IMG/VR virus record: IMGVR_UViG_3300020045_009706
Location: 1-57,878 of that record
From: a virus
Lineage: Duplodnaviria > Caudoviricetes
DNA: 57,878 bases
Reading direction: 5' to 3' (one strand)
The stretch's first letter is position 1. The number at the start of each line of letters is the position of its first letter. The notes under the pieces were generated by a model. It made no database searches. It saw only the letters and a program-made list of their open reading frames with translations, and was not told where the DNA came from. The position numbers and the translations under genes were made by a program. Positions 40,964 through 45,997 of the stretch are shown one piece after another.

Positions 40964-42421
40964 TTATATAGTTATTCTAGCATATCTGTCAGCATTGATA
41001 GTATCAAGCATGACTTCCATTGGAGTCTTGTTTTCTACAACAAATCTGAATATCACAGGAGAGAAGCCAGATACCATTGTTACTCCTCGTTCATCTTCAT
41101 GAACTGGAAGATTCTTTCCTGAGGCATTTACATTCCAAAAGACAACAGTTGGCAATTTGTATCCTGCTTGCTCATACTTTCTTTTAATGACTTCATAATT
41201 TGTTTGACCAGAAACACAGGAATCGAACTCCATATCAGATATGATATAAATCGTTTCTGGCATTTCATCTTCAGGAGTTGAATTTACGACTGCGGTATGT
41301 AACACGAGATCAAAGACAGCCTGAAGATTTGTGTTCATCTCCCATTCTGATCGTTCGATGCTCATCATCTTTTGAGCAAGATTTGAACCCTGAATTTTTT
41401 GAAGTTTTGGACTTCCTGAGAATGTGAGAAAGTAATCTTGAAATTGTCCCTTATTTCGTTCTGCAAAGTACAATGCAAGTGAAACAGACACAGCCATTGG
41501 TTGACCACTCATAGATCCCGATACATCGGCTACAACGAGAGCACTCTTGCCTTGTGTGTAATCAGGGAGCTGATTCCATAAAGCCTCAAGTGTTTTGGAA
41601 TAGTCTTTTTGGACTGATTCATAGATTTGATGAGGATATAGAGTAGAAGCATTGATCTTAACCTCTCCTTTTTCTGCCTTCTCAATAAATTTTGAATATC
41701 GAGCCTCATCATGCTTTTTGAAAGCATTACGGTAAATACGAGAAGCCTGAGACGGAACGGCTGAATAATTGATATCTCCCCATTCCTTTGCAGACATTTG
41801 AGATTCGACAAGTACAATCTTCTTTCTGATATCACGAAGGATCGTACGGTAGGTCTTGTCTGAGTACGCAAGTTTCTGAGCAAAGAATTTTGCTTTTGCT
41901 TTCGTCTTTGCAGAAGAAGCATTGATTGTCGGCAGCCACTTTGCAAGAAGAGAAGGTTTTTCACTCTTGATGTCGTCTTTCAACTGTTTTCCAATGGTAT
42001 CGAAACAGACCTCATTGTCGAAAAAGAGGTCATCCCATCGCCCATATTCAGCAACATGAACAACAATCTTTTCAAAGATTTGTGGGTAGTCAGTGCCGAG
42101 CCATTCCAAACAGGTTCGGAATAAATCACGTTCTCCTTGTCCTCCTCGGACATCACGGAGATAGAATAAAATTTTGATTGCAAGCAGGTTATCTTCTGAA
42201 AATGCTTTCTTAAAAAGATCGAGTGCCTGTGTAGGACTCTTTCTCATTGCTCCTGCTTGAGCGTAAAAATCAAGGAGAGCAGAAGTTGAACGAGTGAAGG
42301 TTACTGCACCATTCGCTGTTTCTCCTTTTGAACTCTCTTTGAACATAGCACCAAGAAGGCTACTCTTTTTTGAAGTCACTTTTGGTGCTGTTGGGAACGA
42401 AATATTTTTTAGATGTTTCAT
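40964..42421 (-). CDS. DUF2828-family protein: helical TROVE-like N-terminus plus vWA domain
   Basis: RDVRGGQGER, YGRWDDL, LAKWLP, LYPH, MIDAS DVSGSM, NTNLQAVF, ISDMEFD, VFWNV, VSGFSP. Confidence 0.85.
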   Translation of the reverse strand: MKHLKNISFPTAPKVTSKKSSLLGAMFKESSKGETANGAVTFTRSTSALLDFYAQAGAMRKSPTQALDLFKKAFSEDNLLAIKILFYLRDVRGGQGERDLFRTCLEWLGTDYPQIFEKIVVHVAEYGRWDDLFFDNEVCFDTIGKQLKDDIKSEKPSLLAKWLPTINASSAKTKAKAKFFAQKLAYSDKTYRTILRDIRKKIVLVESQMSAKEWGDINYSAVPSQASRIYRNAFKKHDEARYSKFIEKAEKGEVKINASTLYPHQIYESVQKDYSKTLEALWNQLPDYTQGKSALVVADVSGSMSGQPMAVSVSLALYFAERNKGQFQDYFLTFSGSPKLQKIQGSNLAQKMMSIERSEWEMNTNLQAVFDLVLHTAVVNSTPEDEMPETIYIISDMEFDSCVSGQTNYEVIKRKYEQAGYKLPTVVFWNVNASGKNLPVHEDERGVTMVSGFSPVIFRFVVENKTPMEVMLDTINADRYARITI

Positions 42422-42427
42422 ATTTTG

Positions 42428-42484
42428 ACAAGACTCACAAGATATATGGAGCCATCACTGGCGATTTATTTGCTGTTGGAGTCT
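42428..42484 (-). ncRNA. ACAGCAA-stem unit 1: tRNA acceptor minihelix cargo
   Basis: AGACTC-CA-ACAGCAA...GCCA-GTGA-TGGC-TCCA...GAGTCT-TGT. Confidence 0.75.
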
Positions 42485-42506
42485 AAATGATTATTTATAA
42501 TTTATA

Positions 42507-42615
42507 ACAAGACTGTTTTATAATTTAGAGTCTTGCGACTTGTAGGATTTGAACCCACATAATTCTTGTTGAAGAAGAATGTTTTAACCATTTAAGGATT
42601 TGCTGTACCAGTCTT
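42507..42615 (-). ncRNA. ACAGCAA-stem unit 2: permuted tRNA-like cargo with UCA anticodon
   Basis: AAGACTG/CAGTCTT stem; TTCTT-CTTCAAC-AAGAA; T arm GTGGG-TTCAAAT-CCTAC; AGTC-GCAA-GACT. Confidence 0.75.
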
Positions 42616-42635
42616 AGTGTAAGCATATTTATTTA

Positions 42636-42750
42636 ACAAGATGCGTTTAAGTGCTCTACCGACTGAGCTACCCTGGCATTGAGCCAGGGGTTGGACTCGA
42701 ACCAACGACCACTCCTTTACAAGAGGAATTGGGATTGCTGTTAGCATCTT
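42636..42750 (-). ncRNA. ACAGCAA-stem unit 3: circularly permuted tRNA-Thr(UGU)
   Basis: AAGATGC/GCATCTT stem enclosing anticodon arm, T arm, loop-closed acceptor stem, then D arm. Confidence 0.85.
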
Positions 42751-42766
42751 TATATTTTAAATGAGG

Positions 42767-42827
42767 ACAAGACACATTTAATGTTTCAATTTAACAGATT
42801 GATATTTAAGATTGCTGTTAGTGTCTT
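42767..42827 (-). ncRNA. ACAGCAA-stem unit 4: isolated Asn (GUU) anticodon stem-loop
   Basis: AAGACAC/GTGTCTT stem; TCAAT-CTGTTAA-ATTGA. Confidence 0.75.
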
Positions 42828-42833
42828 AAGTCA

Positions 42834-42871
42834 AGTATATGCCAGACCGCCAGACTAGTCAATGTGGATAA
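42834..42871 (-). promoter_or_regulatory. sigma70 promoter for the ncRNA array/DUF2828 operon
   Basis: TTGACT-17-TATACT; predicted start near 42827, the first base of unit 4; GCCAGAC twice in the spacer; TGTGGATAA at 42863-42871. Confidence 0.8.
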
Positions 42872-44501: not shown

Positions 44502-45179
44502 TTATTTAGTTAAGATCTTGAGTAGTGTTTCAAGAGTGTAGACATCAGGATACTCTTTCTTCACATAATCAAGGGCTTTCATAATCTGAGCATCTGAGAA
44601 GTCTTTGAGTTGAATAGCAGGGCGGAGATGTCTCTTTAAGGCTTGGCTATATTGTGCTTTGTTTTGGAGGTCGGGCTTCCGATGCTCTAAATATAGGGCA
44701 ATAATATTCATCTCTCTCCGAGGGTTGTCTTCGAGCTTTTGTATTTCCTCTTTTAGAGAGAATGGCTTGTCGCTTACAGCGACAATATCTTTCTCTTCCT
44801 TCTTTACATTCTTGTTTGTGTCCGTTTGCTGTCCGTTTGCTGTCCGTTTGCTGTCCGAGGTTTGATAATCTTTCCAGTGTAGTATTGTAATAACACGGTA
44901 TTTTGTATTCTTTTCTTGTCCGATTTGTCCCTCTTTCTCCAACGCTTCGAGAATTCGCTCAATTGTCGTTTCTGGTATCCCTGTATCCTTAGATAATTGC
45001 TTCCTTCCAGTAACCAATTGCCCTTCTTTTATCATAATAATGTTGCCGTTTGTCATATATTCTTTTGATTTATGATTAGCTGATAGTAATAGATGAATCC
45101 ACAAGTGAACGTATGCAGATTTGGAATAGTATCCCTTCTGCTTCAATTTTCTGTGAATCTTGATCCATCCGTTGTCCAT
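44502..45179 (-). CDS. Phage replication initiator (replisome organiser-like)
   Basis: GWIKIHRK...WIHLLLSANH...GQLVTGR winged-helix N-terminus; internal iteron-like repeats. Confidence 0.75.
   Translation of the reverse strand: MDNGWIKIHRKLKQKGYYSKSAYVHLWIHLLLSANHKSKEYMTNGNIIMIKEGQLVTGRKQLSKDTGIPETTIERILEALEKEGQIGQEKNTKYRVITILHWKDYQTSDSKRTANGQQTDTNKNVKKEEKDIVAVSDKPFSLKEEIQKLEDNPRREMNIIALYLEHRKPDLQNKAQYSQALKRHLRPAIQLKDFSDAQIMKALDYVKKEYPDVYTLETLLKILTK
44819..44857. repeat. 11-bp tandem repeat (3.5 copies), candidate origin iterons
   Basis: TGTCCGTTTGC x3 + TGTCCG within the initiator linker. Confidence 0.8.
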
Positions 45180-45762: not shown

Positions 45763-45997
45763 CAAATCCTTTTTCTTTTTCATCTGCACACTCGCACAGA
45801 ATCGAACTGTGTCTAAAGCGTTTGGAGTGCTTTTGATCTCCAAGATCACGAATGTATTTAGGTTGCCAATATCCACCGTAATATTTACGACGTACATGAG
45901 CACGATGTCCTTGATTGTGTCTTTTATAATTCATTACATCGTGGTTGAACATTGTTGGCTGCCTAGTCCCTGATGAGGGGAGGGCTATTATTTTCAT
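45725..45997 (-). CDS. Hypothetical protein
   Basis: ORF between tRNA cluster and ninG. Confidence 0.3.
   Translation of the reverse strand: MKIIALPSSGTRQPTMFNHDVMNYKRHNQGHRAHVRRKYYGGYWQPKYIRDLGDQKHSKRFRHSSILCECADEKEKGFDGEQSEESKERT

Follow-up and report, generated by a model that had tools for sequence, protein, structure and literature searches.

The question raised by this locus was what a complete tRNA-like domain, with its parts in circularly permuted order and enclosed within a carrier stem, could be doing in a viral genome. The window analysed was the whole 57,878-nt stretch of viral DNA, and the element lies on its minus strand. A reading made from the sequence alone (the sequence-only reading) had described a circularly permuted tRNA-Thr(UGU) with its anticodon arm retained, and had offered two alternatives, a non-chargeable full mimic or a precursor matured by cutting of the acceptor loop. 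The analysis reported here indicates that the element, termed module 2, is Y-RNA-like and probably a non-decoding full tRNA mimic.

Sequence anatomy and fold of module 2

With its basal stem included, module 2 spans 42637-42751 (minus strand), one base off the 42636-42750 given previously; all of the listed parts, from the anticodon arm through the D arm, were present base for base on the minus strand. The 5' strand of the basal (carrier) stem, AAGAUGC (42744-42750), pairs with 42638-42644, and the 3' strand, GCAUCUU together with a conserved G, is located at 42637-42644. Beside this 7-bp terminal stem is a large asymmetric internal loop having 15 nt on its 5' side (42743-42729) and 4-8 nt on its 3' side. 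The conserved motif UAACAGCAA (42735-42743) lies on the 5' side of the loop and is the predicted contact site for a Ro60-like protein.

Within the basal stem, read 5' to 3', are the anticodon stem-loop UUCCU-CUUGUAA-AGGAG (42728-42712) with anticodon U34 G35 U36 at 42721-42719, the variable loop UGGUC (positions 44-48; 42707-42711) with C48 placed for pairing with G15, the T arm GUUGG-UUCGAGU-CCAAC (42690-42706), and a closed 7-bp acceptor stem (42671-42689). In the latter the 3' strand CCCUGGC (42689-42683) precedes a 5-nt linker, UCAAU (42682-42678), and the 5' strand GCCAGGG (42677-42671); CCA is not encoded. These are followed by U8 A9 (42670-42669) and the D arm GCUC-AGUCGGUA-GAGC (42668-42653), which together occupy 42653-42670, and by a distal strand, A26 C27 U28 U29 (42649-42652, A26 at 42652), which can pair with U44 G43 A42 (and G41) as a closing stem of the YrlA type. 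Positions 27-28 thus occur twice, as one local and one distal copy. The conserved tRNA nucleotides U8, A14, G15-C48, G18 G19, U33, A37, U54 U55 C56 and A58 were all read in the element.

In the minimum free energy fold of 42630-42760 all four hairpins formed within the basal stem (z = -4.58), and none of 200 shuffled sequences folded as well. The 28-nt segment separating the motif from the T stem was dinucleotide-shuffled 20,000 times, and a hairpin in tRNA register (stem of at least 5 bp, loop of 7 nt, U33, purine at position 37) appeared in 62 of the shuffles; among 20,000 random sequences matched in composition it appeared in 39. A 51-aa ATG ORF (42592-42747, minus) overlaps the module.

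The permuted tRNA order and the acceptor stem closed by UCAAU leave no contiguous 5'-to-3' order with free acceptor ends. As expected from the permuted order, neither ARAGORN nor the Rfam tRNA model (RF00005) called module 2 in the unpermuted window. When the halves were rejoined, as had been proposed with the sequence-only reading, ARAGORN called tRNA-Thr(tgt), i.e. tRNA-Thr(UGU). The call was repeated with CCA-less flanks and with either junction (26|27' or 28|29'), a cloverleaf of canonical arm sizes being obtained only after rejoining. A tRNA was likewise called in all 18 rejoined relatives.

Module array and neighbouring gene

Module 2 is the second of four consecutive modules at 42429-42828 (minus), each built of a 7-8 bp basal stem and the UAACAGCAA motif, which was found in all four (in module 4 as AACAGCAA). 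Module 1 (42768-42828, minus) has the basal stem AAGACAC/GUGUCUU, UAACAGCAA and a plain apical hairpin with no tRNA-like part. Module 3 (42508-42615, minus) has the basal stem and motif as in module 2, enclosing a D-like arm, an anticodon arm whose loop reads CUUCAAC and a T arm, all in the usual order, together with a 4-bp hairpin capped by GCAA; against the Rfam tRNA model it scored 28.1 bits over model positions 10-63 (gathering score 29). In module 4 (42429-42485, minus) a small hairpin tops the basal stem AGACUC/GAGUCU, and the motif reads AACAGCAA. A sigma-70-like promoter match, TTGACT-17-TATACT, closely precedes module 1 at 42834-42862 (minus); it is a match to the consensus alone, with 10 of 12 hexamer positions in agreement.

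The start codon of a gene for a 485-aa protein (40964-42421, minus) lies 7 nt past module 4, with no terminator-like site reported in between. In the protein, a region of alpha-helical repeats precedes an alpha/beta domain of the von Willebrand factor A (vWA)-like type; the sequence matched Pfam DUF2828 and DUF7788 as well as phrog_850 ("RNA-binding protein", E 4e-146). Pfam TROVE was not matched, and a sequence search of the Protein Data Bank (PDB) returned only an irrelevant PadR match at E 0.5. An AlphaFold2 model (pLDDT 85.7) was submitted to Foldseek, and the top matches were Ro60 structures (1yvr, 2nvo, 9l5y, 2i91, 9nep and 9kop; E 7e-8 to 1e-6, TM 0.5-0.6), with structures of phage phiLo Ro60 among them; the match spanned the whole 485-aa protein. 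The neighbour of the array is therefore predicted to be a Ro60-like protein, the link being at the level of the predicted fold.

All four basal-stem modules of the 57.9-kb genome sit together before this gene. Among 74 loci with basal-stem modules, 31 held a Ro60-like gene, compared with 3 of 44 pattern-matching loci lacking such a stem. Where a locus held the gene, every module (40/40) was on its strand, 21 upstream and 19 downstream. DUF2828-type Ro60-like proteins numbered at least 7,919 in one search, with 702 phage records.

Covariation and anticodons among relatives

Twenty distinct modules of the same subgroup were collected, and 18 related viral modules were aligned (alignment A2); L138 and L148 were left out, no exact basal-stem complement being found for either. 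The D-arm region of L146 was probably misaligned by MAFFT. The search patterns fixed ACAGCAA, so that invariance of the motif in A2 is by construction, and they also fixed UGGUY in the variable loop and A42, G43 and U44.

Every helix covaried. Between 98 and 99% of the cells of A2 were paired, against 73-75% in shuffles, none of 500 shuffles reaching the observed values, and 21 pairs were changed on both sides. When the structure was slid by 1-3 columns, 33-44% of cells were paired. Compensatory changes were found in 7/7 pairs of the basal stem, 7/7 of the acceptor stem, 3/5 of the T stem and 3/3 of the upper anticodon stem; the T arm was paired in 100% of cells, and the D stem also covaried in the 18 modules. 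For the top 3 bp of the anticodon stem, both sides were changed in 6, 10 and 10 of the 18 sequences. Anatomy, fold and covariation in relatives thus bear out the earlier description of a complete circularly permuted tRNA-like domain inside a carrier stem.

The base of the anticodon stem behaved differently from its top. The distal pairs 26-44, 27-43 and 28-42 were formed in all 18 sequences and never varied, and the two lowest local pairs failed in 3/18 and 2/18 sequences with no compensatory change. Covariation does not separate a 5-bp local stem from a composite one, the distal pairs being invariant and A42, G43 and U44 fixed by the search pattern. The stem is most likely composite: two to three distal pairs (26-44, 27-43, 28-42) would come from the strand leaving the D arm, the three local pairs (29'-41, 30-40, 31-39) would cap the 7-nt loop, and a three-way junction would result, its third arm being the basal stem, which would emerge on the 5' side of the anticodon stem. 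The sequence-only reading had placed the break in the tRNA at the junction of the D arm and anticodon arm (26/27). Given that the distal pairs are formed throughout and the lowest local pairs fail uncompensated, that position stands as one of two, a break at 28/29 inside the anticodon stem being equally likely.

A 7-nt loop with U33, A37 and A38 was found in 20/20 distinct modules, under a search pattern that did not specify the hairpin. The anticodons of the 20 modules were GUC, GUU, UGA, GAU, UAA, UAU, UCU, UGU and UUU, and a contig of a metagenome-assembled genome (MAG) carried UAC, giving ten different anticodons on the same scaffold. Anticodon positions 34 and 36 were biased as in real tRNAs, with U or G at 34 in 33 of 36 modules and U36 in 28 of 36. 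The constancy of the U33/A37/A38 frame while the anticodon changes indicates purifying selection on the hairpin. The wider set contained 73 distinct open modules, of which 22 were unparsed for acceptor and D arm and 10 had a segment too short for an anticodon arm. In 9 of the 41 parsed modules the stem was fully distal (5 bp) and the anticodon hairpin lost.

The chimera of tRNA-like domain and protein-binding-type stem occurs in at least two circular permutations. In one, as in module 2, the basal stem is open and the acceptor closed; the other leaves the tRNA ends open and has a capped protein-binding stem within the anticodon stem. BLAST searches of GenBank phages with module 2 and relative L142 gave CcrColossus and CcrPW and no further true relatives. 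Remaining matches were junctions of ordinary tandem tRNA genes and were set aside, as were those in Listeria and Hujiaoplasma phages (L159, L160), where neither a basal stem nor the motif was found by the matched tRNA genes. A scan of contigs from prokaryote genomes gave 17 stretches, of which only L166 and L174 proved on reading to be real modules. The modules are unannotated in the records of Bacillus phage PJN02 and CcrColossus.

Comparison with known Y RNAs and permuted tRNAs

Y RNAs with a tRNA-like domain have been reported beside Ro60 in bacteria and phages (Chen et al. 2014, PMC4201824). Module 2 resembles the YrlA class of these in being encoded beside a Ro60-type gene (here assigned at the fold level), in the pairing of its 5' and 3' ends to give a basal stem whose 5' strand bears a conserved motif, and in the order of its apical parts (variable loop, T arm, closed acceptor-like hairpin, D arm, then the closing stem). 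Its apical domain matched the Rfam YrlA model (RF02553) with 39.8 bits (E 7e-7), below the gathering score of 69; model positions 23-87 were aligned to the T arm, the acceptor hairpin, the D arm and the closing stem (GAGU with ACUU). Relative L006 scored 49.2 bits against the same model.

There are also differences. The motif to which Ro60 binds in YrlA, GNCGAAN0-1G as given in the portion of PMC4201824 available, is absent, UAACAGCAA being at the equivalent place, and the neighbouring protein is of Pfam DUF2828/DUF7788 rather than TROVE. YrlA, in the available text of bioRxiv 10.1101/312249, "lacks the anticodon loop", its Ro60-binding stem running on from the anticodon stem, whereas in module 2 a covarying stem carries the canonical 7-nt loop CUUGUAA. 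Retention of the anticodon stem-loop, in contrast to canonical YrlA, is thus upheld against both that text and the Rfam consensus. YrlA of Mycobacterium smegmatis is cleaved by RNase P in vivo and in vitro and carries a CCA tail (PMC4201824). What it has in common with module 2 is the 7-bp acceptor stem, to which its authors tie the RNase P cleavage, the loop in module 2 being UCAAU, and no anticodon loop is described for it in the portion of the paper concerned.

The nearest relative from a cultured phage is the Y-like RNA of Caulobacter phage CcrColossus (JX100810), upstream of TROVE-like gp139, with 83% identity by BLAST from T arm to D arm; its module occupies about 108,855-108,934 of that record, and the available part of PMC12135203 credits CcrColossus with both Ro60 and a Y RNA. 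Before its T arm it reads UUCGA-CUGUUAA-UCGAG-AGGUC, an anticodon-type hairpin (GUU), and G-C-U follows the D stem. It differs from module 2 in a G+C-rich basal stem, another motif and a longer acceptor hairpin, and the anticodon-type hairpin is unannotated in the record. Yrn1 of Deinococcus radiodurans has been modelled with a potential "anticodon arm" on a 5-bp stem (PMC4201824), but as presented there it has a 6-nt loop, no variable arm, no clear D arm and another orientation of the arms relative to the ends. Thermus phage phiLo Ro60 binds two upstream Y-like RNAs, Yrl1 and Yrl2. Their description in the consulted text of PMC12135203 is in terms of a CGAA motif and a stem-bulge-stem shape and does not present them as tRNA mimics. 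Together with gp130 of Escherichia coli phage Bas63, phiLo provides phage Ro60-like proteins with adjoining Y-like RNAs or tRNA-like genes. The Bas63 protein was reported to counter the ppl defence system, and its authors, in the text available, go no further than suggesting that there may be Y RNAs among the annotated tRNAs (PMC11482910).

A literature search (YrlA from 2017; permuted tRNA together with phage) returned no anticodon-bearing phage Y RNA by title or abstract, and the papers retrieved for DUF2828 were unrelated. An anticodon arm on a phage Y-like RNA seems to be undescribed, as judged from main texts. A preprint on three families of tRNA mimics concerns, in the part available, other RNAs.

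Permuted tRNA genes occur in the red alga Cyanidioschyzon merolae and in some archaea, and two-piece tmRNA is made from permuted ssrA genes. Maturation of permuted tRNAs involves a splicing endonuclease, a bulge-helix-bulge motif and passage through a circular intermediate, tmRNA matures by loop excision, and the products are charged. Module 2 is like both in that a single transcript has the 3' part ahead of the 5' part, with a loop joining the acceptor strands. Unlike permuted tRNAs, the termini of module 2 form a 7-bp stem by an internal loop, with no bulge-helix-bulge as that motif is usually defined; its ends make a protein-binding-type stem that is also seen without a tRNA part, and its relatives carry anticodons mismatched to their bodies.

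Proposed explanation and alternatives

Taken together, these results make it probable that module 2 is a Y-RNA-like module of a phage array, a permuted full tRNA mimic whose basal stem docks the Ro60-like protein. The array of Y-RNA-like non-coding RNAs would be co-transcribed directly upstream of the Ro60-like gene. The 7-bp basal stem and UAACAGCAA would form the docking site for the ring protein, and the apical domain would be the complete mimic, with anticodon stem-loop, variable loop, T arm, closed acceptor and D arm. Action would be of the YrlA type: the basal stem would bind the Ro60-like protein, and the tRNA-shaped domain would recruit or occupy tRNA-recognising proteins, possible cellular partners including factors that read an anticodon loop. 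The acceptor loop might be nicked by RNase P.

The first alternative is that module 2 is a permuted tRNA gene for a working tRNA-Thr(UGU), which we regard as unlikely. RNase P and 3' trimming would open the acceptor loop and CCA would be added, and the product would be either a split tRNA held together by the acceptor and basal stems or one from which the basal stem was excised and 28 ligated to 29'. The ARAGORN call with either junction is in keeping with this, and joining of 28 to 29' gives a perfect 5-bp anticodon stem. Identity elements for ThrRS are G1-C72, C2-G71, G35 and U36, all of which are present in module 2; with the 7-bp acceptor stem, the 5-nt loop and the bias at positions 34 and 36, they also fit processing, threonylation and decoding. 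There is a precedent in the 7-bp acceptor stem of M. smegmatis YrlA, which is cut and receives CCA in vivo (PMC4201824, available portion). N73-CCA was encoded at the start of the acceptor loop in 9 of 41 parsed family members (0.57 expected), but module 2 itself has UCAAU in that place and no CCA. The acceptor stems of relatives are 6-9 bp long and closed by loops of 3-6 nt, including tight tetraloops such as UUCG, GUAA and GAAA, and the other UGU modules (L155, L043, L081 and L091) lack G1-C72/C2-G71. Several anticodons are unfit for the body that carries them: Ser(UGA) or Leu(UAA) is found on a 5-nt variable loop with no long variable arm in 3/18 relatives, and Arg(UCU) with U20 in place of A20 in 5/18, from which it follows that the anticodon is not matched to charging identity. 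Modules 1 and 4, which have stem and motif without a tRNA part, further argue for the stem as a functional unit and not an intron-like spacer, and the bulge-helix-bulge motif is absent.

A gene for the ligase RtcB adjoins the array in L005, a point in favour of the permuted tRNA gene; of the 156 sources searched, just 3 have an RtcB-like gene near the modules, and it is absent from this genome. An RNA-repair context was dropped as a general feature. On this evidence a decoding tRNA-Thr role for module 2 is improbable. Of the earlier description as a normal tRNA-Thr, the sequence features G1-C72 and C2-G71 remain, and the threonine identity is weakened by the ten anticodons on one scaffold. Between its two alternatives the non-chargeable mimic is favoured, with M. 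smegmatis YrlA as the precedent for cutting of an acceptor loop (PMC4201824, as far as available).

Quite unlikely is the second alternative, that the element is an evolutionary relic in which a Y-RNA-like stem has captured, between its two strands, the remains of a tandem tRNA duplication, the anticodon hairpin being a functionless passenger. Tandem phage tRNA genes do give the same order of parts, and BLAST matches ran across "tRNA-Arg / tRNA-Thr" and "tRNA-Arg / tRNA-Val" junctions at 75-80% identity. The anticodon arm of the UCU modules was 94.6% identical over 36 nt to a cyanophage tRNA-Arg, and both the N73-CCA sequences in acceptor loops and the double occurrence of positions 27-28 could be remnants of such an event. 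Against this stand the compensatory changes in 3/3 upper hairpin pairs across 18 relatives and the invariant U33/A37/A38 frame in 20/20 modules despite a changing anticodon, and the loss of the hairpin in 9/41 parsed modules indicates that it can be lost where it is not needed. The third alternative, chance resemblance or a protein-coding or other non-RNA feature as the 51-aa ORF across module 2 might suggest, is very improbable in view of the shuffling result (62/20,000), the fold z of -4.58, helix covariation far above shuffled and slid controls, and the tRNA calls in 18/18 rejoined relatives.

Possible function and significance

Within the reading of module 2 as a Y-RNA-like mimic, a further and rather doubtful proposal is that the anticodon modules are interchangeable anticodon-loop baits on a phage Ro60-like particle, each displaying the anticodon stem-loop of a tRNA attacked by host defence nucleases. 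Anticodon nucleases act on Lys-UUU, Thr, Asn and Arg tRNAs. A bait would soak up the nuclease, or would report damaged tRNA-like RNA or route it to decay or repair. The proposal draws on the fixed U33/A37/A38, on U36 in 28/36 and U or G at 34 in 33/36 modules, and on an anticodon that changes on a constant scaffold; it draws also on the phage Ro60-like protein reported, in the available part of PMC11482910, to counter a defence system. In a bolder form of the proposal, some modules including module 2 may be nicked by RNase P, CCA-tailed and charged as two-piece tRNAs.

Mimicry of tRNA by Y RNAs has been described before, and the YrlA RNAs described are without an anticodon loop. Module 2 and its relatives constitute a large, mostly viral group of Y-like RNAs in which a full anticodon stem-loop is kept under selection while the anticodon varies. 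Such elements are missed by annotation pipelines. They offer experimental handles on the tRNA-reading proteins that are engaged, on the conflict between phage and host over tRNA, and on the origin of permuted RNAs from tandem tRNA genes.

Organization of the array and anatomy of module 2

The window, a complete virus record of 57,878 bases (37.5% G+C), holds an array of four consecutive modules (1-4) on the minus strand at 42828-42429. In each of them the 5' strand of a 6-8-bp basal stem leads into (U/A)ACAGCAA; no further unit of basal stem plus motif was found elsewhere in the 57,878-base genome. Modules 1 and 4, like many modules in relatives, are plain, consisting of stem and motif without any tRNA part. 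A promoter-like sequence match, TTGACT-17-TATACT, lies at 42862-42834 (minus), and the interval from the array to the following gene had no reported terminator-like site. The ACAGCAA word also occurs, without a basal stem, in an 11-nt unit, ACGGACAGCAA, present in three tandem copies at 44832-44860 (minus) within an ORF for a DnaD-like helicase loader (44502-45179). At 45786-45855 (minus) ARAGORN called a tRNA-Trp(CCA), which has no counterpart among the Rfam tRNA hits that reach the gathering score.

Module 2, as read from the sequence, occupies 42751-42637 (minus). Its 5' side consists of the stem strand AAGAUGC, the motif UAACAGCAA, the linker UCCCAA, the hairpin UUCCU-CUUGUAA-AGGAG and UGGUC. 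The hairpins GUUGG-UUCGAGU-CCAAC and CCCUGGC-UCAAU-GCCAGGG follow, then UA and, on the 3' side, the hairpin GCUC-AGUCGGUA-GAGC, A-CUU-AAAC and the closing strand GCAUCUU-G. Every part listed by the sequence-only reading, which had described a complete circularly permuted tRNA-Thr(UGU) inside the basal stem, was matched exactly on this strand. The minimum-free-energy fold of 42630-42760 (-41.7 kcal/mol; z = -4.58, equalled by 0 of 200 shuffles) contains the four hairpins inside the outer stem. No tRNA was called by ARAGORN or the Rfam tRNA model in place, in the unpermuted order. When the halves were reordered, as that reading had proposed, ARAGORN called tRNA-Thr(tgt) on the script-rejoined sequence, and again with CCA-free flanks and either junction. 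All 18 rejoined relatives were also called tRNAs by ARAGORN, and mimicry at the level of the cloverleaf is therefore complete. By chance, 62 of 20,000 dinucleotide shuffles and 39 of 20,000 composition-matched random sequences produced a hairpin with a stem of 5 bp or more, a 7-nt loop, U33, a purine at 37 and the correct register before the T stem.

Comparison with YrlA

At relaxed thresholds the best Rfam match in the region was YrlA (39.8 bits, E 7e-7; gathering score 69), aligned over model positions 23-87 of 114. The shared portion spans the variable loop, the T arm, the closed acceptor-like hairpin, the D arm and a 4-bp closing stem (GAGU/ACUU), whereas the Ro60-binding part of the YrlA model falls outside the alignment. 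The published Ro60-binding motif, GNCGAAN0-1G (PMC4201824), is absent from module 2, which has UAACAGCAA at the equivalent place. The Rfam consensus of YrlA passes from the Ro60-binding stem to the T arm without a hairpin, but module 2 has one there. YrlA is described as an RNA that "lacks the anticodon loop" (10.1101/312249), and the contrast already drawn by the sequence-only reading, that the anticodon arm is kept in module 2 but not in YrlA, agrees with both sources.

Covariation and the anticodon stem

An unbiased scan, with a pattern limited to the motif, A42 G43, the variable loop and some of the T stem, returned 25 viral loci, with 20 distinct modules among them. Each of the 20 had a 7-nt loop with U33, A37 and A38, and their anticodons were UCU (5), GAU (4), UGA (2), UAU (2), UGU (2, window included), UUU (2), GUC, GUU and UAA. 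The same pattern found 17 stretches in 185,579 prokaryote genomes, of which only those in L166 and L174, both contigs of metagenome-assembled genomes (MAGs), were real modules by reading (L numbers denote related loci fetched for comparison).

Eighteen of the 20 modules were aligned (alignment A2), those of L138 and L148 having been dropped by the script. With a 5-bp local anticodon stem, 98.0% of A2 cells were paired versus 73.0% in shuffles, and 21 of 28 pairs had changed on both sides. The observed values were reached by 0 of 500 shuffles, and sliding the partners by 1-3 columns gave 36-44% paired. Compensatory changes were seen in 7/7 pairs of the basal stem, 7/7 of the acceptor, 3/5 of the T stem and 1/4 of the D stem. 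The upper three anticodon-stem pairs had both-side changes in 6, 10 and 10 sequences, and the upper hairpin with its loop is regarded as established. The lower local pairs, 27'-43 and 28'-42, showed no compensatory change and were unpaired in 3 and 2 of the 18 sequences, respectively. Alternatively, A26 C27 U28 of the strand after the D stem would pair with U44 G43 A42; these distal pairs form in 18/18 sequences and none vary, positions 42-44 being fixed by the search pattern and the partner ACU free. A composite anticodon stem, with two to three distal and three local pairs at a three-way junction, is regarded as the better-supported model, although unproven. It would also suit members in which no local extension is possible (L091, L038, L083 and L056). 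A break inside the anticodon stem, at 28/29, is as probable as one at the D-arm/anticodon junction (26/27), where it was first read.

Relatives and their layouts

A broad IMG/VR scan, its pattern being ACAGCAA with a T-loop after it, yielded at least 118 loci. Among the matches listed, together with the window and earlier loci, there were 151 pattern hits, and the script scored the basal stem of these listed hits as open in 82, capped in 16 and absent in 53. After duplicate removal 73 distinct open modules remained among the matches listed, of which 41 parsed as full tRNA-like domains, 22 were unparsed and 10 had a segment too short for an anticodon arm. Within the 41 parsed modules from these matches, an anticodon-type hairpin whose local and distal pairs jointly fill a 5-bp stem was found in 21, and a fully distal 5-bp stem without a loop, the classical YrlA layout, in nine. 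The exit point of the basal stem on the anticodon stem therefore differs between family members, anywhere from 0 to 5 pairs.

Open-acceptor elements, in normal order, carry in the anticodon stem a 49-71-nt insert that contains a capped basal stem with ACAGCAA. They align end to end with the Rfam tRNA model (47.6-51.1 bits) at L005 2237-2346 and at L008/L011 2105-2222 and 2229-2363; another, at about 2306-2418 of L002, was identified by reading of the sequence alone. This layout is a circular permutation of that in the window. Module 3 (42508-42615, minus), with the same basal stem and the motif UACAGCAA, is a second kind of permutation, broken near positions 7/10, and the third layout overall. 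Its tRNA-like body is in normal order, with a D-like arm, a 6-bp anticodon arm (loop CUUCAAC, anticodon UCA), a T arm and the 4-bp hairpin AGUC-GCAA-GACU in the place of the acceptor stem; it scored 28.1 bits against the Rfam tRNA model over positions 10-63 (gathering score 29).

Other RNA-related features were seen in the fetched loci. An 80-nt tmRNA-like element at L008/L011 1937-2016 scored 47.0 bits against Rfam tmRNA, equal to the gathering score, with 13 nt replacing the 306-nt body. One kilobase upstream, at 833-905, lies a tRNA with anticodon UCA (ARAGORN "SeC"; Rfam tRNA 62.8 bits). In L005 a 702-aa RtcB ligase gene (10-2118; Pfam E 1e-108, two stretches) ends about 100 nt before the array and Ro60-like gene; RtcB-like genes were present in 3 of 156 sources and not in the window. 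Bacillus phage vB_BsuS_PJN02 (OM634653; L157) has an unannotated 1.5-kb stretch upstream of a DUF2828 gene (locus 443-2021). By reading, this stretch includes a number of tRNA-like genes and four or more basal-stem modules, among them a YrlA-like one whose motif is the variant ACAGCU.

The Ro60-like neighbor

The Ro60-like gene (40964-42421, minus) starts 7 nt past module 4 and encodes 485 aa. The protein matches Pfam DUF2828 and DUF7788 and phrog_850 ("RNA-binding protein") and is homologous to mycobacteriophage proteins annotated "Ro-like RNA binding protein"; 702 phage records match, and at least 7,919 relatives were found in a large protein collection. A sequence search of the Protein Data Bank (PDB) gave no sequence-level match. 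With an AlphaFold2 model (pLDDT 85.7, pTM 0.84), the top twelve Foldseek matches were Ro60 structures (E 7e-8 to 9e-5, TM up to 0.60), from frog (1yvr/2i91/1yvp), Deinococcus (2nvo), human (9nep/9nen) and Thermus phage phiLo (9l5y/9kop), followed by von Willebrand A domains.

Arrays of the same kind lie upstream in loci encoding close Ro60-like homologues (61-71% identity). Among the matches listed, a Ro60-like gene was within the fetched locus in 31 of 74 basal-stem loci versus 3 of 44 stemless pattern loci, and where the gene was present, all 40 modules from these matches were on its strand (21 upstream, 19 downstream). The Ro60 of phage phiLo binds two upstream Y-like RNAs and complexes with host PNPase (PMC12135203). 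By analogy with Y RNAs, the Ro60-like protein of the window would bind the modules.

Does module 2 yield a working tRNA-Thr?

The acceptor stem of module 2 has 7 bp and a 5-nt loop, and G1-C72 and C2-G71, both claimed by the sequence-only reading, were read in the sequence together with G35 and U36. These constitute the Thr identity set. The YrlA of M. smegmatis, also with a 7-bp acceptor stem, offers a precedent, being cleaved by RNase P and receiving CCA in vivo (PMC4201824). Among the matches listed, 9 of 41 parsed modules have N73-CCA directly after the 7-bp acceptor 3' strand, within the acceptor loop (about 0.57 expected; examples in L056, L064, L083, L088, L121, L042, L103 and L073), and two more of these 41 have CCA without N73. 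The N73-CCA may be left over from a tRNA 3' end, or it may indicate that some family members undergo RNase P/CCA-type processing. CCA is, however, not encoded in module 2. Within the close subgroup, two modules combine this scaffold with Ser(UGA) and one with Leu(UAA), all three having a 5-nt variable loop; five more have it with Arg(UCU), and their position 20 is U instead of A. In bacteria, Ser or Leu on a 5-nt variable loop, and Arg without A20, block cognate charging. Acceptor stems in this subgroup vary from 6 to 9 bp and are closed by loops such as UUCG, GUAA, GAAA or triloops, and G1-C72/C2-G71 are not kept in the other UGU modules.

Anticodon spectrum

Thirty-six distinct complete modules formed the union set (window plus loci among the matches listed); 21 of these had been selected for U33 and a purine at 37, a requirement that did not apply to the 20 from the unbiased scan. 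In this listed set position 34 was mostly U (21) or G (12), with A in two modules and C in one; position 35 was near uniform, and position 36 was U in 28/36; A stood at position 37 in 35/36 and at 38 in 35/36. The commonest anticodons among the 36 were GAU, UGU, UCU, UUU, UAU and GUU. The Ro60-like protein gp130 of phage Bas63 is reported to act against the ppl defence system (PMC11482910). This report and the bias to NNU anticodons with A37 A38 motivate the hypothesis that anticodon-bearing modules act as baits.

Likely origin and relation to known Y RNAs

Four observations would fit an origin in which a tRNA gene was duplicated in tandem and both outer ends were then lost: BLAST matches span the junctions between phage tRNA genes in tandem, the anticodon arm of the UCU modules shares 94.6% identity with cyanophage tRNA-Arg over 36 nt, N73-CCA relics occur in acceptor loops, and positions 27-28 are present in duplicate within module 2.

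In Caulobacter phage CcrColossus (JX100810; L158), which is among the phages named as having Ro60 and Y RNA (PMC12135203), the TROVE-like gp139 is preceded by an unannotated array of Y-like modules rich in G+C (locus about 2230-2930). In one of these modules the T arm is preceded by the hairpin UUCGA-CUGUUAA-UCGAG (GUU), so an anticodon-type hairpin exists in a published genome. Neither the main texts consulted nor the literature searches yielded a description of this feature. Y RNAs with tRNA-like domains adjoining Ro60 are known in bacteria and phages (PMC4201824). On these grounds module 2 is classed, from its sequence, as a putative Y-RNA-like complete tRNA mimic, which has a distinct predicted docking motif and, as its predicted partner, a Ro60-like protein of the DUF2828 type.
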